From Candidatus Saccharimonadota bacterium (lineage in GTDB: Archaea; Nanohalarchaeota; Nanosalinia; Nanosalinales; Nanosalinaceae): a stretch of 32,000 nucleotides of DNA. Each line of letters starts with the position of its first letter. The stretch's first letter is position 1. The stretch is from NCBI RefSeq assembly GCF_029232205.1, contig NZ_CP107255.1, forward strand, positions 1-32,000, written 5' to 3'. Shown piece after piece: positions 1,708 through 13,437 of this stretch. The notes beneath the pieces are model-generated. The model did no database searches, had not been told where the DNA came from, and saw only the letters and a program-made list of their open reading frames with translations. Position numbers and translations under genes: made by a program.

Positions 1708-3279
1708 ATGAATGAAAAAGCACTCAAAGAGCTAACACAGCAAGGATGCATTATAGGCAAGGATGCAGCAGAAGGCCTGACAGAAGATGATGTAGAGGCG
1801 ATAAAAGGCCTTGATGTCACTCCGATGTATGTCTCCGAGATGATGCTAAATAATCTAAGGGAAAGAAGTAACAGTGTTGAGGAAGAAGTTGTACATGAAA
1901 CAGAGGGGGGCAAACTGGTAGAGAAGACAAAGCTCGAGGAAGAGCAAGATACATCTGACAACAGTTCTACTGACGAAGAAGTTGATCTGGGAGAGGAGTT
2001 TGACGAAACAAGCTCCAAGTTCAGCAAGGACAAGACAGTAAGAATCAAGGACGACAGAAACAGGTCCGAGATGCGTACCAAGGTAGAGATCCTTGATGAA
2101 ACAGATATTTCTGAAGATGAAAAAGATGTACCAGAGTTTCTGGGATATTACAACGATCGATACGATCGAATGAAAGACATGCTTATGCGGAGAATGGAGA
2201 TGAAATCCGCAACTTCTATCAAGAGGCTTGAATCACGTGACGAAGGCGACGAAGCCACTACTATAGGCCTTGTAAACGATAAATACTCGACACAGTCCGG
2301 AAAGTGGATAGTTGAAATTGAAGACAAGACTGGAACTTTCAAAGTGCTTGCAGATGAACGAGACGGAGAGAGAATAGTTCCTGACGAAGTAATCGGTGTA
2401 AGAGGAAATCTTGGAGGCGATATAATCTATGCTGACGATATTGTGAGGCCTGACCTACCGATCCCACAGGGAGTAAAAACCACTAAAGACGAGGTCTCCG
2501 CGGCCTATATCTCTGATTTCCACATGGGATCTCAGGATACTCTGAACAAGAGGCTGGATCGTTTCGCTGACTGGCTTGGAAGCTCGCAGGCGGAAAACGT
2601 TGGATACCTTGTAATTCCAGGCGATGTGGTTGAAGGAGTAGGAACATACCCGGGCCAGGAGGAGGAACTCGAGGTCACGGACATCTACAAACAGTACCAG
2701 CGATTCGAGGAATGGGTGGAAAAAGTACCGGAACATATTCAGATCCTTCTGGGCCCAGGAAACCACGATATTACACGTCTAGCAGAGCCACAGCCACGGA
2801 TTGCTGAGGACGCACTACCGACTATTTCAGACTTCAACAATGTGCACTTGGTACAGAACCCGCAGACTGTCAGGCTTCACGCAATCAGAAGCAAGGGTAT
2901 CAAGAATCTGATGTACCATGGATACAGTTTCGACGAACAGATCGATCAGATACAGTCCTTGAGGGAGAAGGCCTACGACGATCCAAGCCACGTAATGATC
3001 GACCTTCTGAAGAGAAGGCACCTGGCACCAACCTATGGATCCAACCTTGTATCTCCAGAAGGCCGTGACAACCTTGTAATAGAAAATAAACCAGATGTAT
3101 TCGTCGCTGGCCACCTTCACAGCCACGCAAACGAAAGCTACAAAGGAGTAAACGTAATTGCATCATCAACTTTCCAGGCACAGACAGACTTCCAGAAAAG
3201 AGTAGGCCACGAACCAGATCCTGGAAAAGTAACACTTGTCGACTTCAAAACCCGAAACACAGACGTCAAACAGTTCTAA
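1708..3279 (+). CDS. polD1: DNA polymerase II (PolD) small subunit DP1
   Basis: 523 aa with calcineurin-like phosphoesterase motifs DFHMGS, GDVVEG, GNHD and GHLH. An acidic low-complexity insert lies near the N-terminus. The gene sits immediately upstream of DP2. Confidence 0.9.
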   Translation: MNEKALKELTQQGCIIGKDAAEGLTEDDVEAIKGLDVTPMYVSEMMLNNLRERSNSVEEEVVHETEGGKLVEKTKLEEEQDTSDNSSTDEEVDLGEEFDETSSKFSKDKTVRIKDDRNRSEMRTKVEILDETDISEDEKDVPEFLGYYNDRYDRMKDMLMRRMEMKSATSIKRLESRDEGDEATTIGLVNDKYSTQSGKWIVEIEDKTGTFKVLADERDGERIVPDEVIGVRGNLGGDIIYADDIVRPDLPIPQGVKTTKDEVSAAYISDFHMGSQDTLNKRLDRFADWLGSSQAENVGYLVIPGDVVEGVGTYPGQEEELEVTDIYKQYQRFEEWVEKVPEHIQILLGPGNHDITRLAEPQPRIAEDALPTISDFNNVHLVQNPQTVRLHAIRSKGIKNLMYHGYSFDEQIDQIQSLREKAYDDPSHVMIDLLKRRHLAPTYGSNLVSPEGRDNLVIENKPDVFVAGHLHSHANESYKGVNVIASSTFQAQTDFQKRVGHEPDPGKVTLVDFKTRNTDVKQF

Positions 3280-3291
3280 AGTGATCACAAA

Positions 3292-6200
3292 ATGGATACA
3301 GAAAGCTACTTCAACAGTATAAGAGAGAAAACGGATAAAGCATACGATATAGCGGAAGAGGCCCGTGATCAGTCCAAGGATCCAGAACAGAGAGTTGACA
3401 TTCCTGTAGCAGAGGACCTGGCAGAAAAGGCCTCATCACTTGTAATTGCAGCAAAATTCCCTGAACTTGAAGATCAGGGAGTAGCTGAAAGAATTAGAGA
3501 ACTGGAAGACGAGTATGGAAAAAACGATGAAAGAGTATCCTTCTCGATCGCTAGAGAGATTGCAGAAGGAGAATTCACGGAGTTTGAAGATCTTGAAAGA
3601 GCATGTGAGGCCGGAGTCCGAGTAGGAGTCTCCTACATGACAGGAGGTATTACAACAGCACCTCTGGAAGGAATCGGCGATGTAAAGATAAGAGAGAATA
3701 ACGACGGCACGGAATACCTGGCAATGTACTACTCAGGCCCTATCCGTTCAGCAGGAGGAACAGCCTCCGCAATGTCAGTACTTCTCGCAGACTACGTCAG
3801 AATAGGTGTAGGCCTCGACAAATTCAAACCATCAGAGACAGTTGTAAACAGATATGCAGCCGAAGTAGACGACTACTACAACCGTGTAACCGCAAAACAG
3901 TACTATCCTGAAAGAGAGGAGACCTCGATGATTGCGGAAAATGTTCCAGTCGAAGTCACGGGGTCGCCAACAGAACAGATCGAAGTATCAAACTACAAAG
4001 ACCTGGACCTCATCGACACCAACCAGATCAGAGGAGGCATGTGTCTAGTATACCTCGACGGCCTACCACTGAAAGCCCCAAAGATCAAGAAAAGAATAGA
4101 GAAATGGGGCAAGGACTTCGGCCTCGAACACTGGGAATGGGTAAAAGACTACCTCGACCTGCAGAAAGAAATCCACTCATCAGGAAGCGACGATGAGGAA
4201 GACGACGGAGAGGCCAAGGAAAAATCAAAATACACGCCATCCGACAAATACCTGGGATCGCTGACCGCAGGAAGGCCTATATTCGCGCATCCAGGAAGAA
4301 AAGGAGGATTCAGGCTGCGGTACGGTCACTCAAGAACCAACGGCCTCGCAGCAGTATCGATGCACCCGGCCACACTGGAGATCTCCCAGAGATTTATCGC
4401 AATAGGAACACAGCTGAAGACCGAATACCCTATGAAAGGTACAGTGGCCACTCCATGCGACTCAATACATCCGCCTGTCGTCAAACTGAAGAACGGCGAC
4501 GTCAAGAAAATTGAGTCAAGAGAAGAGGCCCGAGAAATAGAGAAAGACGTTGAAGAAATCCTCTTCATGGGCGACATGCTCGTAACATACGGAGAGTTCG
4601 TGGAAAACGGCAAGAAACTTCTTCCTTCTCCTTATGTGTCTGAATGGTGGGAGAAAGATCTTGAAAAGGCACTTGAAGAACAGAACGTCAAACTAGGCCG
4701 GGACTTCTCCGAGAGAGATCCTACGCCAGAAGAGGCCATGAAGATTAGCGACAAACTCGGAATCAGGCTGCACCCAAAATGGACATACCACTGGAAAGAC
4801 ACATCACCAGAGAAATTCCAGGCCCTATACCAGTCAATGAGAGAAGGAGAACTCAAGGGAGAAAAAACTGAAAGAGCACTCGAAGATCTACTTGTTCAGC
4901 ACGAAAAAGAAGGAGGCCAGATCAAGGTCAGAAAACAGGATCTAAAGGCCCTCAAACTTCTGCTCAAACCAGAAGAAGATAATAAGGATGTAGTAGAGTC
5001 AGCGCAGTCAGGAAGAGGTATAGTTGATGCAGTCGAGGAAATATCTGGTGTAGAGCTTGGTGATCCAGCACCTCACTACCTTGGAGCCAGAATGGGCCGA
5101 CCGGAGAAAGCAGAGCGCAGAACACTTAACGGAAAGCCACAGCTTCTATTCCCGTGTGGAAAGGAGGAAGGAGGCCGAATGAGAAATCTTGTCGCTTCCT
5201 ACAACCAGACAATGCATGGAGACAAGGGAATAGTCAAAGAGCAAATTGTACAGAACTACTGTACTGAATGCGAGAAAAAATCATACTATCCTTACTGCCG
5301 TGACTGCGGAGAGCCAACAGAACCTCTATGGGTCTGCAGCGACTGCGGAAAAACATACAGAGAAGAAACAGAAGTCTGCGGAAAATGCGGCAACGAATGG
5401 ATCAAAAGACATGAATACACCGACATCAACGTCCGAGAAATGATGGACGATGCCTTGGAAAACCTCGGAATGAACAGGCCACCGGAACTACTGAAATCTT
5501 TCCGTGGAATGACCTCAAAAACCAAGATAGTCGAGCCAATCGAAAAAGGCCTTCTAAGAAAAAAGCACGACCTCTACGTCAACAAAGACGGAACAGTAAG
5601 ATATGACGCAACAGACATCCCGATGACACACTTCAAGCCGAAAGAGGCCGGTGTGTCGGTAGAGAAGCTCAGAGAACTTGGCTACGAAAAAGATATTAAC
5701 GGAGAGTCTCTGGAAAACGAGGATCAGGTACTTGAGATGAAGCCGCAGGACATCATTATCCCTGACGGCGACATGAGCCTGGCGGCCTCCGACTACATGC
5801 TTAGAGTAACTCAATACATCGACGAGCTACTGGAAAAATTCTACGGCCTGGACCCGTACTACGAGGCCGAAGGAAAAGAAGATCTGGTAGGAGAACTAGT
5901 CATAGGCCTGGCACCGCACACCTCAGGAGGAACAGTCGGCCGTATAATCGGCTTCACGGATGCAAAAGGAATTTACGCACACCCTTACTGGCATGCAGCC
6001 AAGAGAAGGAACTGTGATGGTGACGAAGACGCTATACTGCTTATGATGGACGGATTACTGAATTTCTCCCGTAAATACCTCCCTGACATGACAGGCGCGC
6101 GTACAATGGATGCTCCATTGATTTTATCGACTGTGCTGAATCCTGACGAGGTTGACGACGAGGCCTGGGCCGTTGAGACTGTTGATGATTATCCTCTCAG

Positions 6201-6798
6201 TTTTTACGAGGAGACTCAGAAGTACAAGGAGCCGTGGAATCTTGAGACAGATATCGAGATAGGTGAGGATATTGTCCACAGCGATCAGCCGTATTCTCAC
6301 GACTACACGATTGAGACTTCGGATATTGATGATGGGCCTTCTCAGTCGGAGTACGTGACTCTGGATGATATGGATGAGAAGACTACCAACCAGCTGAAAT
6401 TGGGGGAGAGGATCCGGGCCGTTGATGAAAACGCGGTGGCTGATCTATTGCTGGACAAGCACTTTATTCCTGATATCAAGGGTAACTTGCGTTCGTTTTC
6501 AAGTCAGAAGATGCGCTGCGTTGATTGCAACGAGAAGTTCCGTAGAGTACCTATGACCAATCAGACGATCGCACCGACAGGAAAGACTACAGCCCGGTGT
6601 CCGGAATGCGACGGAAAAGTTCTTCTAACAATCTCGGAGGGAACGATCAAAAAGTATCTGGAGCCTTCCAAGAGAATTATTGATAATTATGAGGTATCCC
6701 CGTACATCAGGCAGCAAATCCTGATTCTTAACAAGACTATTCAGAGTCTTTTCGGCAAAAGCGATAGGCAGACGGGCCTGAAACAGTTTGCGAGCTGA
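3292..6798 (+). CDS. polD2: DNA polymerase II (PolD) large catalytic subunit DP2
   Basis: 1168 aa with multiple Cys4 zinc modules (CTECEKKSYYPYCRDCG; CSDCGK..CGKCG; CVDCNEKF..CPECDG) and conserved DP2 blocks (GLAPHTSGG, NCDGDEDA). The length argues against an intein. Confidence 0.95.
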   Translation: MDTESYFNSIREKTDKAYDIAEEARDQSKDPEQRVDIPVAEDLAEKASSLVIAAKFPELEDQGVAERIRELEDEYGKNDERVSFSIAREIAEGEFTEFEDLERACEAGVRVGVSYMTGGITTAPLEGIGDVKIRENNDGTEYLAMYYSGPIRSAGGTASAMSVLLADYVRIGVGLDKFKPSETVVNRYAAEVDDYYNRVTAKQYYPEREETSMIAENVPVEVTGSPTEQIEVSNYKDLDLIDTNQIRGGMCLVYLDGLPLKAPKIKKRIEKWGKDFGLEHWEWVKDYLDLQKEIHSSGSDDEEDDGEAKEKSKYTPSDKYLGSLTAGRPIFAHPGRKGGFRLRYGHSRTNGLAAVSMHPATLEISQRFIAIGTQLKTEYPMKGTVATPCDSIHPPVVKLKNGDVKKIESREEAREIEKDVEEILFMGDMLVTYGEFVENGKKLLPSPYVSEWWEKDLEKALEEQNVKLGRDFSERDPTPEEAMKISDKLGIRLHPKWTYHWKDTSPEKFQALYQSMREGELKGEKTERALEDLLVQHEKEGGQIKVRKQDLKALKLLLKPEEDNKDVVESAQSGRGIVDAVEEISGVELGDPAPHYLGARMGRPEKAERRTLNGKPQLLFPCGKEEGGRMRNLVASYNQTMHGDKGIVKEQIVQNYCTECEKKSYYPYCRDCGEPTEPLWVCSDCGKTYREETEVCGKCGNEWIKRHEYTDINVREMMDDALENLGMNRPPELLKSFRGMTSKTKIVEPIEKGLLRKKHDLYVNKDGTVRYDATDIPMTHFKPKEAGVSVEKLRELGYEKDINGESLENEDQVLEMKPQDIIIPDGDMSLAASDYMLRVTQYIDELLEKFYGLDPYYEAEGKEDLVGELVIGLAPHTSGGTVGRIIGFTDAKGIYAHPYWHAAKRRNCDGDEDAILLMMDGLLNFSRKYLPDMTGARTMDAPLILSTVLNPDEVDDEAWAVETVDDYPLSFYEETQKYKEPWNLETDIEIGEDIVHSDQPYSHDYTIETSDIDDGPSQSEYVTLDDMDEKTTNQLKLGERIRAVDENAVADLLLDKHFIPDIKGNLRSFSSQKMRCVDCNEKFRRVPMTNQTIAPTGKTTARCPECDGKVLLTISEGTIKKYLEPSKRIIDNYEVSPYIRQQILILNKTIQSLFGKSDRQTGLKQFAS

Positions 6799-6841: not shown

Positions 6842-7261
6842 ATGGACGGAAAAGTAAAACTGAAGGAGGTTATGACGGAAGGCGTAGTAGCCGTAGACGC
6901 AGACAGTAACGTAGTAGAGGCAGCGAGCAAGCTTCGGCAGGAAGATATCAGAGGCCTTGTCGTAATTGAAGACGAGGATGCAGTCGGAGTAGTGGTCTGC
7001 AGAGATATAGCATACGATGTGATCGCAGATGGCGAAGAGGCAAGAGAAACTGAAGTAAAAGATATAATGAGCACAGATCTGATTGTAGCAGACGAAGACG
7101 AGCTGCTTGACGATGTTGCAATGGCAATGTCGAAAAACAACGTCTCCAGAGTTCCAGTAGTCAGAGGAGACATGCTTGTAGGGATCGTAACCCAGTCAGA
7201 TATTCTAAGAGCATGGCCTGGATTCGCAGAAGTCATGCAGGAAAAAGAGGTGTCAGAATAA
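6842..7261 (+). CDS. CBS-domain pair protein (paralog 1)
   Basis: The track ORF starts at 6788, overlapping the polD2 end. The ATG at 6842 (MDGKVKLKEVMTEG) aligns with the N-terminus of the downstream paralog. It carries two CBS repeats. Confidence 0.8.
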   Translation: MDGKVKLKEVMTEGVVAVDADSNVVEAASKLRQEDIRGLVVIEDEDAVGVVVCRDIAYDVIADGEEARETEVKDIMSTDLIVADEDELLDDVAMAMSKNNVSRVPVVRGDMLVGIVTQSDILRAWPGFAEVMQEKEVSE

Positions 7262-7262
7262 A

Positions 7263-7799
7263 ATGAGCATAGACAGTGAAGTAAAGGTAAAAGAACTGAT
7301 GACAGAAGGAGTCATCGCAGTAAAACAGGATAAAACAGTAAAAGAAGCAGCCCAGCTACTCAAAGAAGAAGGAATCAGAGGCCTTGTCGTAGTCGACGAA
7401 GAAGAGGCCGTAGGAGTAGTAGTCTGCAGAGACATCGTGTACCAGGTAGTAGCTGACAACAAGGATCCTGAAGAAGTACTTGTCAAAGATATAATGAGCA
7501 CAGACCTCGTAGTAGCTGATGAGGATGAGCTGCTTGACGATGTTGCAATGGCAATGGCCCGCAACGACATTTCAAGAGTTCCAGTGGTCAGAGAGGACAT
7601 GCTTGTAGGGATCCTGACACAGACTGATATTCTACGTGCATGGCCTGGATACGCAGAGGTCATGGGGGAGGAAATTGAGATGCAGGCAGAGGCCACTCCG
7701 CGCCAGACCACCAGAGAGGGTATGTGCGAGAACTGTGAGAACTACAGCGAGAACCTCCAGGAAACAAACGGAATGCTTCTATGTGAGGAATGCCGGTAA
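7263..7799 (+). CDS. CBS-domain pair protein with C-terminal CxxC..CxxC zinc ribbon (paralog 2)
   Basis: 178 aa. It is highly similar to 6842-7261 at both DNA and protein level. The extra tail reads CENCENYSENLQETNGMLLCEEC. Confidence 0.85.
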   Translation: MSIDSEVKVKELMTEGVIAVKQDKTVKEAAQLLKEEGIRGLVVVDEEEAVGVVVCRDIVYQVVADNKDPEEVLVKDIMSTDLVVADEDELLDDVAMAMARNDISRVPVVREDMLVGILTQTDILRAWPGYAEVMGEEIEMQAEATPRQTTREGMCENCENYSENLQETNGMLLCEECR

Positions 7800-7830
7800 G
7801 GCCTTCCTCTTTCTATAATACTTTTTTATC
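7799..7830 (+). terminator. Candidate transcription-unit end: stop codon fused to AGGCCT, followed by a T-rich tract
   Basis: taAGGCCTtcctctttctataatactttttta. A T6 run lies at 7823-7828. The TATA-like ttctataata at 7811-7820 probably serves the next unit. Confidence 0.35.
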
Positions 7831-7852: not shown

Positions 7853-8317
7853 ATGGGCATGCATATCACCGAGGAAGTAGACAGGAGAAGGCTTACACTC
7901 AAGGTTGAAGACCCGGAAGAAGTCTACTCCTCCATGAAAATGCTTCTTGAGGACAGAATCAAGTTCTCCTCGGTGAACGAAGAAAAATACTACAACGACG
8001 TCGACGGCAAAGACATCAGAGCCAAAATCGTCACAGTCTTCGGCATGGACCATCTAACCCATGAAACCATGGAAATCTTTCTCCACATCGACAGAGAGGC
8101 CTCAGAACTCGATATACAGCTGAAGGCCAAGCTCGAGACAGAGTACCCAACCCATAAATCGTGGCAGGATTCTCTGATCTACTACGCGTACAGATCGCTG
8201 TACGACAAGTTCCTGTATGGGGAAACACGTGAAGGTTACGAACACGCAGTGGAGGAAAGAGTAGACCTGCTTATGGACTACATCAAGGACGATATGGAGG
8301 CGGATTACAGTGGTTAA
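7853..8317 (+). CDS. Uncharacterised acidic protein, member A of a three-paralog operon
   Basis: The track ORF starts at 7790, but the ATG at 7853 follows a TATA-like box. It shares the pattern EDPxx(V/I)Yxx(M/I)KxLL ... W/Y..(Y)(N/D)KF(L/Y)..E...YE with the next ORF. Confidence 0.65.
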   Translation: MGMHITEEVDRRRLTLKVEDPEEVYSSMKMLLEDRIKFSSVNEEKYYNDVDGKDIRAKIVTVFGMDHLTHETMEIFLHIDREASELDIQLKAKLETEYPTHKSWQDSLIYYAYRSLYDKFLYGETREGYEHAVEERVDLLMDYIKDDMEADYSG

Positions 8318-8930
8318 ATACGAGCACGACGCGCTTTCCAAACAGGATCACTACTTCGTAAAAGAGGATCCGGCCCGAATCTACAGAGGAATCAAGGATC
8401 TACTCGTCGAAGAATTTGACATGGACAGGATCGAGGAAGGAAGAAACGAGTTCTCGGTAACAGGCCCTAAAGACAAGATAAGGCTGCACGCATTCAAGGA
8501 GAAAGGCCGCAACACAGTACTGTACTTCAACCTTTCCTGGAGAGTAAAAACTCCGAAAAGCATCTACACGCACGACTCAAGGCCTGATGACATCAAAAAA
8601 GTCAGGGTAAAAACTACTGGAAGAGTAATCACTGTTTATCCGGGTGGAAACGCAGAGATATTCGAGCCTTATGCAATTACACAGTATCCACAGGAAAACT
8701 ACGATGCAACGCACCTTGAAGATGAGAAAACACAGTTCCAGAGATCAAAATTTTACAAGATACTTGTAGGAATCTGGTACAACAAGTTCTACTCGAAAGA
8801 AATACACAAGTACGAGGAAGAGGCCTCGGAAATAGTTGTACGGCTTCAAAACCTGATGAGAGAAAAGTTCGGAGTGGAGGACGGTATCGTCCGCACAGGA
8901 AGCTCCCACTACACTCCTCCATGGCAGTGA
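8310..8930 (+). CDS. Uncharacterised protein, member B of the three-paralog operon
   Basis: 206 aa. The GTG start overlaps the upstream stop by 8 nt. It is collinear in similarity with member A, and its C-terminus ends HYTPPWQ. Confidence 0.65.
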   Translation: MVKYEHDALSKQDHYFVKEDPARIYRGIKDLLVEEFDMDRIEEGRNEFSVTGPKDKIRLHAFKEKGRNTVLYFNLSWRVKTPKSIYTHDSRPDDIKKVRVKTTGRVITVYPGGNAEIFEPYAITQYPQENYDATHLEDEKTQFQRSKFYKILVGIWYNKFYSKEIHKYEEEASEIVVRLQNLMREKFGVEDGIVRTGSSHYTPPWQ

Positions 8931-8936
8931 TAGAAA

Positions 8937-9617
8937 ATGTCTGATGACGAAGAACCTGGCTTTTTCGGAAAAATGATGTGCTGGCTTCACACGCCGAAAA
9001 CCGAGAACAGCGACTGGGAACACGACAAGTTCCACGAAAAAGACGATATCTGGCACCACGAACACCTTTTTGAAGGCCACTGGGTGGAGATACAGAACAA
9101 GGCCGAGTGGTATGAAAGCCCGAATATTGTCAGCATCTACAAGGACCACAAGTACATCTTCAACCAGAATATGGAGCTTGACAAGCCTTCTGAGACGTTC
9201 TACTATGAAAACGTGGACAGCGGCGAGTTTGAATCTGTTATGGAGGTAAAGGAAGACCTTCCAAGTAAGCATGGAAAACTTAAACTTACTACAAATCCTG
9301 CAACTCAGAGCCCTCCCTCAGGAGACAATGATTTCGGCCTGATCGAGTACTGGGTAAAGCTAGAGGTAAAATACAGCTTTCCCGATGGAATTAACTGGCT
9401 TCCAAGAATCTTCGCCTATCCGTTGAATCGTTTCTTCAAGAAATGGTTTGTGAACAGGATTGGAGAGGAAATGATCGAGTACGACATCGAGTACGCAAGG
9501 GAGAGGCTGACAGAGTACTTCGACTACATCAGAAAATACCATGGAGAGGAGCCTGTCCAGACAAAGACACGTCAGGAGGTCTATACTCCGCCGACCGATG
9601 GGCCTTTCTTCCAGTAG
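8937..9617 (+). CDS. Uncharacterised protein, member C of the three-paralog operon
   Basis: 226 aa, starting 6 nt after member B. Its C-terminal helix region (FFKKWFVNRIGEEMIEYDIEYARERLTEYFDYIRKY) resembles those of A and B. The tail contains VYTPPTDGPFFQ. Confidence 0.65.
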   Translation: MSDDEEPGFFGKMMCWLHTPKTENSDWEHDKFHEKDDIWHHEHLFEGHWVEIQNKAEWYESPNIVSIYKDHKYIFNQNMELDKPSETFYYENVDSGEFESVMEVKEDLPSKHGKLKLTTNPATQSPPSGDNDFGLIEYWVKLEVKYSFPDGINWLPRIFAYPLNRFFKKWFVNRIGEEMIEYDIEYARERLTEYFDYIRKYHGEEPVQTKTRQEVYTPPTDGPFFQ

Positions 9618-9660
9618 AAACTTTCCCAGAGCTAAAAGGTTAACTATCGTATTGTTTGAT

Positions 9661-9752
9661 GAGGAAGGTAACTTCCTCAATTCGGCTGCCCTCGGTCAGC
9701 AGGTGCTACCGTACGGGACTACAGGGATGATCATCTGTGTTACAGGGCAGCC
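9661..9752 (+). promoter_or_regulatory. Candidate structured RNA leader or small ncRNA in the spacer upstream of DUF167-dnaG
   Basis: Perfect hairpin gaggaag-GTAA-cttcctc at 9661-9678 with a GNRA-type loop. A 9-bp long-range stem pairs ggctgccct (9684-9692) with agggcagcc (9744-9752), enclosing two smaller hairpins. Confidence 0.3.
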
Positions 9753-9786
9753 ACACTACTTTTATCCTCAGAGAGGAGGCCCTGAA

Positions 9787-10041
9787 ATGACAGAATTCTA
9801 CATCAAAGTTAAACCAGATAGCAACGAGTTCCGTGTTGAAGAAGGAAGTTTTCCCGAGTTCTATCTTGAATCAAAGGCCGAGAATGGGAAAGCTAATTCA
9901 GAGTTACTAAGCAAACTGGAAAATATACTGGGGCAGAGGCCTGGAATTGTTTCCGGCCACAAAAGCAGCAGGAAGAAGATCAAGGTCGACCTATCTCGGG
10001 ACGAGGTAGATCGAAAACTGGAGGCTGAAATCAATGGGTAA
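9787..10041 (+). CDS. DUF167 (YggU-like) family protein
   Basis: The 84-aa core matches the DUF167 pattern (..KAENGKANSELLSKLENILG...VSGHKSSRKKIKV). The ATG at 9787 is preceded by gagaggagg, a Shine-Dalgarno-like sequence. The track ORF start at 9541 overlaps the previous gene and is judged an artefactual extension. Confidence 0.7.
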   Translation: MTEFYIKVKPDSNEFRVEEGSFPEFYLESKAENGKANSELLSKLENILGQRPGIVSGHKSSRKKIKVDLSRDEVDRKLEAEING

Positions 10042-11149
10042 GACATCACAGAAATCCGCAAAGTACATGATAAACGCAAAAATCGAAATAGCAGGAATAG
10101 TTGAAAAATCAGATGTAGTCGGCGCAATATTCGGCCAGACAGAAGGCCTTCTTGGCGACCAGCTTGATCTCAGAGAACTCAAAGAGAAAGGAAAGATCGG
10201 GAGAATGAACCTCGATCTCAAGCAAACAGACGGCAGCACAGAAGCCTCACTCGAACTACCTTCATCTCTCGATGCAACCGAAACCGCTCTGCTAGCAGCC
10301 TCCCTTGAAACCATAGAAAAGATAGGCCCAAGCAATGCCGATCTCACTGTAAACAGTATTGAAGACCTGAGAGTATCGAAAAGAGACTACATCGTCAAAC
10401 GCTCAAAACAGCTTCTACAGGATATAGAGCGCGAGACACCGGATAAAAAGAAACTGATGAACGAGATCAAACAGGAAGTCAGAAAGGAAGAACTGACAGA
10501 CTATCACTCATTTGTCGCAGGCCCAGACGTCGAATGGGATGACAACATCGTAATTGTAGAGGGCAAGGCCGACGTCGTCAACCTCCTGGAGAAAGGAGTG
10601 AAGAACGCGCTGGCCATCGGAGGAACATCAGTACCTTCACAGATCGAAAGAATCGCAGAAGAAAAAGACCTTACAGCATTCCTCGACGGAGACAGAGGAG
10701 GAGATCTCATCCTCAGAGAACTCAAGGAAAAGGCCGAGCCAGAGTACGTGGCCCGAGCTCCCGAAGGAAAAGAAGTAGAGGAACTATCCAAGAGAGAAGT
10801 ACACTCAGCACTCAGAGACAGAGAACCCGTAAAATACACTGAAGAACCGGAAGTCGAACAACAGATATCTGAAGAAGACGTAAAGGCCTTCTCAGAAAAA
10901 ATCTCCGAACTCACAGGAACTCGCGCAGTCAATACTCTGGACGAGGACGGAGAAGTAGTTGAGAAAAGGCCTGTCTCAGCAGTCTCCGAACTTGAGAAAA
11001 AATGTTATGCAGTTATCATGGATGGAACTATTGACGAGGCAGCTGTTTCAAAGGCTGAACAGCTTGATGCAGAATACCTGGTAGGAAAGGACCGTAATGA
11101 AACGGCCTCATCCAGCGAAGTAATCCTTATGACGAAGGAAGAGCTATAG
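10034..11149 (+). CDS. dnaG: Archaeal DnaG primase-like protein (TOPRIM domain)
   Basis: 371 aa. The N-terminus (YMINAKIEIAGIVEKSDVVGAIFGQTEGLLG) is typical of archaeal DnaG. TOPRIM motifs IVEGKADV and LDGDRGGDLI are present. The start overlaps the DUF167 stop by 8 nt. Confidence 0.9.
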   Translation: MGKTSQKSAKYMINAKIEIAGIVEKSDVVGAIFGQTEGLLGDQLDLRELKEKGKIGRMNLDLKQTDGSTEASLELPSSLDATETALLAASLETIEKIGPSNADLTVNSIEDLRVSKRDYIVKRSKQLLQDIERETPDKKKLMNEIKQEVRKEELTDYHSFVAGPDVEWDDNIVIVEGKADVVNLLEKGVKNALAIGGTSVPSQIERIAEEKDLTAFLDGDRGGDLILRELKEKAEPEYVARAPEGKEVEELSKREVHSALRDREPVKYTEEPEVEQQISEEDVKAFSEKISELTGTRAVNTLDEDGEVVEKRPVSAVSELEKKCYAVIMDGTIDEAAVSKAEQLDAEYLVGKDRNETASSSEVILMTKEEL

Positions 11150-13285: not shown

Positions 13286-13437
13286 AGCCCCGGGCGGGAT
13301 TTGAACCCGCGACCTGTCCCTTTCTGTGCCTGTCAAGTTTTGATTGTAGGCCATGCTGTGCATGGTCTGATGCGTGCCGCTCTGGGCATTGGCAGGCGTA
13401 CGAGGGGACCGCTCTAGCCAGGCTGAGCCACCGAGGC
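13286..13437 (-). tRNA. tRNA-Thr (anticodon CGU) with a ~77-nt intron at the canonical 37/38 position
   Basis: Hand-folded. Acceptor stem GCCTCGG/CCGGGGC, D-arm GCTC-AGCCTGGCTA-GAGC, anticodon stem GTCCC/GGGAC with loop CU-CGU-A|intron|A, variable loop AGGTC, T-arm GCGGG-TTCAAAT-CCCGC, discriminator U. No CCA is encoded. Confidence 0.8.

Follow-up and report, generated by a model that had tools for sequence, protein, structure and literature searches.

An apparently undescribed family of three paralogous proteins encoded in the replication-gene neighbourhood of Nanohaloarchaeota

Proteins of the SRPBCC or Bet v 1-like class combine an N-terminal strand-helix unit with an antiparallel meander sheet and end in a long helix; the canonical helix-grip arrangement, beta-alpha-alpha-beta6-alpha, has seven strands and two helices, with the long C-terminal helix packed on the sheet. 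One repeat of the TATA-binding protein (TBP) follows the order beta-alpha-beta4-alpha, classified as SCOP fold d.129, and single-strand-binding (SSB) proteins are known for partner-binding C-terminal tips in which an acidic stretch is followed by aromatic residues. Here we analyse three consecutive genes, designated A, B and C, whose products resemble these systems in some respects and differ from them in others. They lie in a stretch of 32,000 nucleotides, hereafter the window, corresponding to positions 1 to 32,000 of contig NZ_CP107255.1, the origin-proximal part of the chromosome of Candidatus Nanohalovita haloferacivicina BNXNv, a halophilic symbiotic archaeon. All three members of this triad are annotated at NCBI as "hypothetical protein", a label carried by more than one third of nanohaloarchaeal genes (PMC10266531). 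Their positions are as follows:

7853-8317, + strand: gene A (HBNXNv_0006), 154 aa, or 152 aa if read from the ATG at 7859; exact NCBI match
8310-8930, + strand: gene B (HBNXNv_0007), 206 aa, GTG start; exact NCBI match
8937-9617, + strand: gene C (HBNXNv_0008), 226 aa; exact NCBI match

As judged from sequence comparisons, the triad is an undescribed protein family restricted to one phylum. All sequence homologues come from Nanohaloarchaea, in 78 homologous clusters for A (45-100% identity, all nanohaloarchaeal), 184 for B and 106 for C; one metagenome-assembled genome labelled Aenigmatarchaeota and one labelled Colwellia, also found among the homologues, are evidently mislabelled bins. The initial annotation, made from the bare sequence, had recognised no family, and none of the subsequent searches provided a placement. 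With a threshold as lax as E=10, Pfam returned no meaningful match to A, B, C or ten relatives from deep-branching lineages, and the NCBIfam scan of A, B and C gave no match. For the triad and its deep-lineage relatives, PHROGs matched only at E 0.18 or worse and PADLOC gave no hit; no relative of the triad was found among the IMG/VR viral contigs. Sequence-profile searches of the PDB with the alignments of the three families (A1 for A, A2 for B and A3 for C) and of the whole superfamily (A4) produced chance-level matches only, such as PMS1 HMG and a coat protein. In the literature, we found no description of these proteins, nor of SRPBCC or lipid-transfer proteins in Nanohaloarchaeota. GINS, a PCNA-like heterotrimer, the HbYX tail of proteasome chaperones and canonical PIP-box tails were considered as candidates and rejected on fold, length or missing Pfam match.

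The three proteins had been described from the outset as mutually similar, a claim which holds at the level of profiles and bridging sequences, but not of single pairs, since direct BLASTP comparisons are not significant (E=0.92 for A/B, 8.1 for B/C and 0.028 for A/C). When the family alignments, containing 34 sequences for A and 35 each for B and C, were compared by hhalign, A and B matched with a probability of 89.8% (E=1.8e-6) over 135 columns, taking in an EDPxxxY...LL helix and the long C-terminal helix. A and C matched with a probability of 46.7% (E=2e-4) over 97 columns, and the comparison of B with C was not significant. The bridging sequences were found by searching 1.84 billion representative proteins with the B-family profile: only 16 matches were obtained, including B-like proteins of 158-200 aa. 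The contigs encoding these distant relatives hold complete triads, A'-B'-C', in which the three proteins are far more alike. The hidden Markov model (HMM) of nanohaloarchaeal A matches the deep-lineage C' at 2.7e-12 and B' at about 1e-7, and that of B matches A' at 7e-13 and C' at 3e-10; the C HMM matches only C' among the deep-lineage proteins (down to 6e-25). The top score of a family HMM mostly falls to its own orthologue. The superfamily alignment spans A, B and C from end to end, and both the EDPxxxY...LL helix and the long C-terminal helix, already singled out in the initial annotation, align across the families. The cross-matches of the family HMMs to the deep-branching triads show A, B and C to be true, anciently duplicated paralogs of one family, and the duplications are older than the radiation of the phylum.

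A, B and C form a single, tightly packed unit of genes on the same strand, provided with its own TATA-like box. The coordinates initially given for three coupled reading frames proved accurate, as did the 8-nt overlap of A with the GTG start of B and the 6 nt separating the stop of B from the start of C. For comparison, 45 places were annotated with HMMs, namely 41 loci in which B was found (one genome per GTDB species), three earlier loci and the window. Over this set the median gap is 1 nt between A and B, with 16 overlaps, and 6 nt between B and C, where it amounts to 15 nt or less in 38 of the 45 loci. Such packing is consistent with translational coupling of the three genes. Homologues of gene A mostly begin at the ATG equivalent to 7859. 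At the start of B, 33 of the 45 loci have ATG instead of GTG; the GTG start in the window is supported by the resulting N-terminus, MVK(F/Y), which agrees with that of the B family. The element upstream of the unit is:

7822-7829, + strand: TATA-box-like element TTTTTTAT, conserved upstream of A; putative promoter

Inspection by eye of the 45 loci showed nearly all of them to have a motif of the form TTTTT(T)A(T/C) about 23-33 nt 5' of the start of A. A TATA-like box had been predicted for the unit, and a conserved one is present, but 10 nt away from the position first assigned to it: the string at 7811-7820, directly beside TTTTTTAT, is TATAAT-like and is not conserved across loci. The distance between the end of TTTTTTAT and the ATG at 7853 is 23 nt, a spacing that suggests a leaderless or near-leaderless mRNA for A-B-C.

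In all 45 places the three genes are adjacent and co-oriented. The genes that surround them in the window are listed here:

469-1674, + strand: cdc6
1708-3279, + strand: PolD small subunit
3292-6798, + strand: PolD large subunit
6842-7261, + strand: CBS gene 1, CBS-pair
7263-7799, + strand: CBS gene 2, CBS-pair, with a C-terminal CxxC...CxxC zinc-ribbon-like motif
9787-10041, + strand: DUF167/YggU, TIGR00251 below cut-off, PF02594 on the homologues of relatives
10034-11149, + strand: archaeal dnaG, Toprim on the homologues of relatives

The location between polD-CBS and DUF167-dnaG, noticed in the window from the beginning, is kept across the whole phylum. CBS and PolD genes are found upstream of the triad wherever the contig extends that far, DUF167-dnaG follows in most loci, and the complete order cdc6-polD-CBS-ABC-DUF167-dnaG was observed in three genera and, among the 41 GTDB species loci, in most of those whose contig is long enough. 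The most constant neighbour throughout the phylum is the CBS gene, which adjoins the triad in almost all loci, rearranged ones included; most relatives have one such gene, the window two in tandem. Nanohaloarchaeota archaeon QJJ-9, whose PolD large subunit is 59% identical to that of the window, as against 73% among genera of the main class, features the same cluster minus CBS. Rearrangements are seen in three other loci: L053 has polD and cdc6 in inverted orientation with respect to the triad but keeps CBS-A-B-C-dnaG intact, and in L052 and L054 the triad comes after PolD with TctA (plus HIT in L054) in between, CBS still adjoining it. Genes for RPA, RadA and an Orc-like AAA protein lie near the triad in deep-branching lineages. 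A metagenome scan (alignment A6) yielded only three loci, all with the same synteny, contributing one more instance of CBS-A-B-C-DUF167-dnaG. The triad is vertically inherited beside the replication origin.

A cultivated relative, Ca. Nanohalococcus occultus, carries three hypothetical genes, SVXNc_0005-0007, between its CBS and DUF167 genes, which by position would correspond to A-B-C. They are transcribed, with 362, 406 and 616 reads per kilobase per million (RPKM), values in the middle of the range and below those of cdc6 and polD (PMC10266531 Table S1). A JGI metagenome contig (L055, 1990-3201) encodes two adjacent, divergent A-like paralogs, rich in Lys, Arg and Cys and not acidic, the first of them broken by a run of N; they are followed by a hydrophobic reading frame, and no replication genes are found within the 3.2 kb. 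This contig hints that the family may also occur, in another context, in lineages that are not halophilic.

The three proteins differ in composition. A, the minimal paralog, is acidic, with an isoelectric point (pI) of 4.7; C is acidic as well (pI 4.9) and contains 17% aromatic residues, the range for the triad being 11-17%. B is near-neutral in the window, and the median pI of its family is 8.7, to be compared with 4.9 for A and C and with 4.2-5.9 for the neighbouring proteins. Hydrophobic segments are missing in A, B and C, which points to a cytoplasmic character, and neither a signal peptide nor a membrane anchor was detected in any of them. Over 32 genomes, mean pairwise p-distances are 0.44 for A, 0.41 for B and 0.46 for C, against 0.43 for DnaG and 0.30 for the CBS protein. 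Conservation extends over the full length of the proteins, and among the invariant residues charged and polar ones predominate (RRR, EEKYYNDV, KEKSPHT, HGEEPVQTKTRQ). The parts that B and C possess in addition to the shared domain are the following:

8643-8747, + strand: class-specific insertion in B, residues ~112-146, 35 residues of low model confidence ahead of the long helix; absent from deep-branching triads
8937-9071, + strand: class-specific N-terminal extension of C, residues 1-45, with a conserved W..P....DDIWH..LF.G.W pattern and two predicted helices; absent from deep-branching triads
8898-8927, + strand: C-terminal tail of B, GSSHYTPPWQ, conserved, predicted disordered; candidate docking motif
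9540-9614, + strand: C-terminal tail of C, HGEEPVQTKTRQEVYTPPTDGPFFQ, in which the block KYHGEEPVQTKTRQ is nearly invariant and is followed by aromatic-x-P and an acidic tip

In the B family the tail has the consensus ...GASHYxPPW(Q/K/R), where SHYxPPW is nearly invariant, P204 and W205 are invariant and Y201 is present in at least 90% of the sequences. The invariant residues of C are H202, G203, E204, E205, P206, Q208 and F224, and its acidic tip reads ...EEGxFFQ. Both tails are predicted to be disordered, the predicted local distance difference test (pLDDT) falling below 50 at residues 192-203 of B and 215-226 of C. Both proteins were initially reported to end in YTPP. This is the case in the window, where a search for other such ends returned B and C alone, besides three non-gene-like frames of the stop-to-stop list, but the literal YTPP is not kept in the C family, which retains only aromatic-x-P. 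The deep-lineage proteins end in ...P(A/S)IG(R/K)SxRE(Y/W)YxPxFR (B') and ...EPxxGKxxRxxYEP(F/I/L)(F) (C'), and these ends show the tails of B and C to be homologous, with a [KR]xx[YF]xP core. A has no tail in any lineage. A tail that is conserved yet disordered is typical of a docking motif which folds on its partner, and the acidic-then-aromatic end of C (...PEEGxFFQ) is like the partner-binding tips of SSB proteins. With SSB-type tips and PIP-box proteins, B and C share short conserved, disordered C-terminal motifs and a replication-gene neighbourhood; the triad has, however, neither an OB fold nor a PIP consensus, and the analogy is one of mechanism only. The C-terminus of the PolD large subunit (6760-6795), ...RQTGLKQFAS, does fit a PIP-box-like QxxLxxFA, and the B and C tails are unlike it.

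AlphaFold2 models of B and C, built with the family alignments, are of moderate confidence (pLDDT 73.6 and predicted template modelling score, pTM, 0.67 for B; pLDDT 76.7 and pTM 0.68 for C). In the DSSP assignment, B has strands at residues 2-17, 40-43, 56-64, 69-80 and 96-110 and helices at 21-34 and 147-187, the latter of 41 residues. C has strands at 50-61, 85-91, 98-107, 113-125 and 134-146 and helices at 64-78 and 157-202, the latter of 46 residues, as well as two extra N-terminal helices before the shared domain and a short strand in the tail. The domain common to both models is thus beta-alpha-beta4-long alpha, and each triad protein is predicted to consist of one such alpha+beta domain, of helix-grip/TBP-like topology.

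An SRPBCC/START-like fold had been guessed at in the initial annotation, and structural comparison lends it weak support. In Foldseek searches of the PDB, the 50 matches listed for C are without exception SRPBCC members, as are most of the matches listed for B; among them are CoxG (2ns9, E=9.5e-4, probability 0.94), PR-10/Bet v 1, Ups1/PRELID, PYL receptors, ARO/CYC and START proteins. The best E-values, 6.8e-4 and 9.5e-4, are however marginal, and the TM-scores of only 0.15-0.37, with root mean square deviations (rmsd) of 10-25 Å, suggest a resemblance at the level of the fold, not membership. Although the order of N-terminal strand and helix, meander sheet and long C-terminal helix is the same, the triad proteins have about five strands and one N-terminal helix in place of the canonical seven and two, their C-terminal helix, of 41-46 residues, is much longer than in SRPBCC families, and their conservation is strongly polar and charged. 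No sequence-profile match to the SRPBCC clan (Polyketide_cyc/cyc2, START, COXG, AHSA1, Bet_v_1 and others) was obtained in Pfam at E<=10, NCBIfam or the PDB. To our knowledge, three co-encoded paralogs with docking-type tails are not a feature of SRPBCC proteins. The triad is probably a reduced, derived variant of the helix-grip class.

The order of elements predicted for B and C is also, as far as topology goes, exactly that of one TBP-type repeat, and the replication-gene context would suit a DNA-binding saddle of this kind. TBP, the N-domain of RNase HIII and the N-domain of DNA glycosylases are all missing from the top 50 Foldseek PDB matches of B and C, from the Pfam results and from the PDB sequence searches. 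Among the best local superpositions of B are PsbP/Mog1/DUF1795-type sandwiches (3lyd, 4pws MTC28 and 4r7k, with probabilities of 0.97-0.99 and rmsd of 5-7.5 Å over ~95-125 columns); Cyt1Aa and volvatoxin are further Foldseek matches. The PsbP/Mog1/DUF1795-type and Cyt/volvatoxin alignments cover only about half of B, with TM-scores of 0.35 at most, and offer no functional or contextual link.

We lean, tentatively, towards the view that the triad is not an enzyme but a complex peculiar to this lineage, which serves chromosome replication or the handling of nucleic acids as an accessory or adaptor. The three subunits would assemble into one cytoplasmic hetero-oligomer, which is plausible from their paralogy, the tight coupling of the genes and the conserved disordered tails, and the contacts would be made through the long, aromatic-rich C-terminal helices and conserved surfaces. 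Basic subunit B could lend the complex its affinity for nucleic acids, while the tails of B and C ([KR]xx[YF]xP, plus the acidic ...FFQ tip in C) would dock onto partner proteins, most likely within the DNA-replication or DnaG machinery, because the gene neighbourhood is persistent. A number of observations weigh against this interpretation. The best structural matches are ligand-binding SRPBCC proteins and not nucleic-acid binders. B is not basic everywhere, its pI being 4.9 in QJJ-9 and 5.3 in L050, both of deep-branching lineages, and the B and C tails do not fit the canonical PIP box, Qxx[LIM]xx[FY][FY]. In a mirror-tree test of co-evolution of A, B and C, the partial correlations lie on either side of the control value of 0.30, at 0.54 for B-C, 0.38 for A-C and 0.21 for A-B. 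The L052 triad is not beside DnaG; moreover, gene order close to archaeal origins can persist for historical reasons within one phylum, so that the neighbourhood is weak evidence of function.

This last consideration is central to another possible explanation, to which we give somewhat less credence, namely that the triad is a complex with a housekeeping function outside replication, for example an assembly chaperone, a regulator paired with the adjacent CBS sensor protein or a cytoskeletal or structural element, and that it lies close to oriC simply because synteny is frozen in a small genome that rearranges slowly. The most constant neighbour of the triad is indeed the CBS protein and not a replication enzyme, the synteny evidence comes from a single phylum, L052 and L054 have TctA/HIT interposed and no DnaG nearby, and expression in the relative is moderate, below that of cdc6 and polD. 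On the other hand, the linkage with cdc6, polD and dnaG has outlasted both the inversion in L053 and a divergence of PolD to 55-59% identity, and a basic B and docking-type tails fit the binding of nucleic acids or partners, without proving such a role. The triad might alternatively act with DnaG on RNA, perhaps providing a cap or adaptor that binds RNA during its degradation or processing; in role it would then be comparable to the accessory subunits of the exosome, with which archaeal DnaG is associated in other lineages. DUF167-dnaG directly after C in most loci, a 170-nt spacer free of any obvious long T-run terminator and the basic character of B speak for this proposal, as does the RNA-metabolism role of archaeal DnaG, favoured by literature to which PMC3914693 refers. 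We nonetheless consider it unlikely: Pfam and NCBIfam relate none of the proteins to exosome, Sm, KH or S1 families, and DnaG does not adjoin the triad in L001, L052 and L054.

The Foldseek matches, dominated by SRPBCC members, and the high aromatic content (11-17%) raise the prospect that the triad proteins are SRPBCC/START-like carriers, each subunit enclosing a hydrophobic ligand such as a lipid, an isoprenoid or a quinone between its sheet and its long helix. The idea is attractive because cultivated nanohaloarchaea do not synthesise lipids, amino acids or cofactors (PMC10266531), and the complex would then handle host-derived lipids or cofactors that these organisms cannot make. It is weakened by the poor superposition described above, with too few strands and helices, and by the pattern of conservation, since invariant residues that are mostly charged or polar and spread over the full length are unusual for ligand pockets. 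A Bet v 1-clan match is missing from Pfam even at E up to 10, and the triad has no signal peptide, membrane anchor or lipid-metabolism neighbour; a carrier role is, in our opinion, rather doubtful. Its more specific form, a cytoplasmic heteromeric START-like lipid or isoprenoid shuttle, universal in Nanohaloarchaeota, that takes up, sorts or delivers host-derived membrane lipids and whose conserved tails would dock it onto membrane or partner proteins, seems improbable. Finally, the possibilities that the frames are open by chance or belong to a mobile, viral or defence cassette are excluded for practical purposes: hundreds of conserved homologues align over their full length, the chromosomal position beside oriC is fixed, the three hypothetical genes in the same position are transcribed in the cultivated relative, and PHROGs, PADLOC and IMG/VR gave no match.

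Retention of the triad in every lineage examined and a constraint like that of DnaG, in minimal genomes of ~1 Mb, make it very likely that these genes are important for the cell. For the present, the triad counts as a "conserved hypothetical", albeit a well-characterised one, rather than as a demonstrated new mechanism. At the sensitivity of HMM searches, its relatives are confined to the phylum; the basic subunit, the docking tails and co-translation suggest a complex. If this complex is an accessory of the replisome or of DnaG, it would be a lineage-specific addition to an otherwise conserved archaeal replication apparatus. If it instead carries hydrophobic ligands, it bears on the use of host lipids by DPANN symbionts, and a true lipid shuttle would represent missing machinery for membrane building in those that are lipid-auxotrophic. 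In either case, the availability of cultivated hosts for Nanohalobium, Nanohalococcus and Nanohalovita makes the triad a tractable target.

Some minor features of the window and of related contigs were also recorded. The spacer between C and DUF167 (9618-9786, 170 nt) has neither a long T-run nor an Rfam match. A 166-aa reading frame, 9541-10041, overlaps the end of C; as DUF167 homologues are ~81-84 aa long, the start of DUF167 is probably the ATG at 9787. The PolD large subunit encoded at 1485-6929 of L003 is 1814 aa long and contains an intein (Intein_splicing, LAGLIDADG), which that of the window lacks. ARAGORN predicted no tRNA anywhere in the window; on the minus strand at 13286-13437, an Rfam tRNA match of 46 bits covers model positions 1-71 over 152 nt and points to an intron-containing tRNA. 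A likely replication origin is located upstream of cdc6, at 117-357. A 16-nt inverted repeat (117-132/326-341, 81% complementary) flanks an AT-rich region at ~240-330 containing a tandem 19-nt repeat, and the G-string GGGGGTGGGTGGGGG is found at 343-357, an arrangement resembling that of ORB elements around a duplex-unwinding element.

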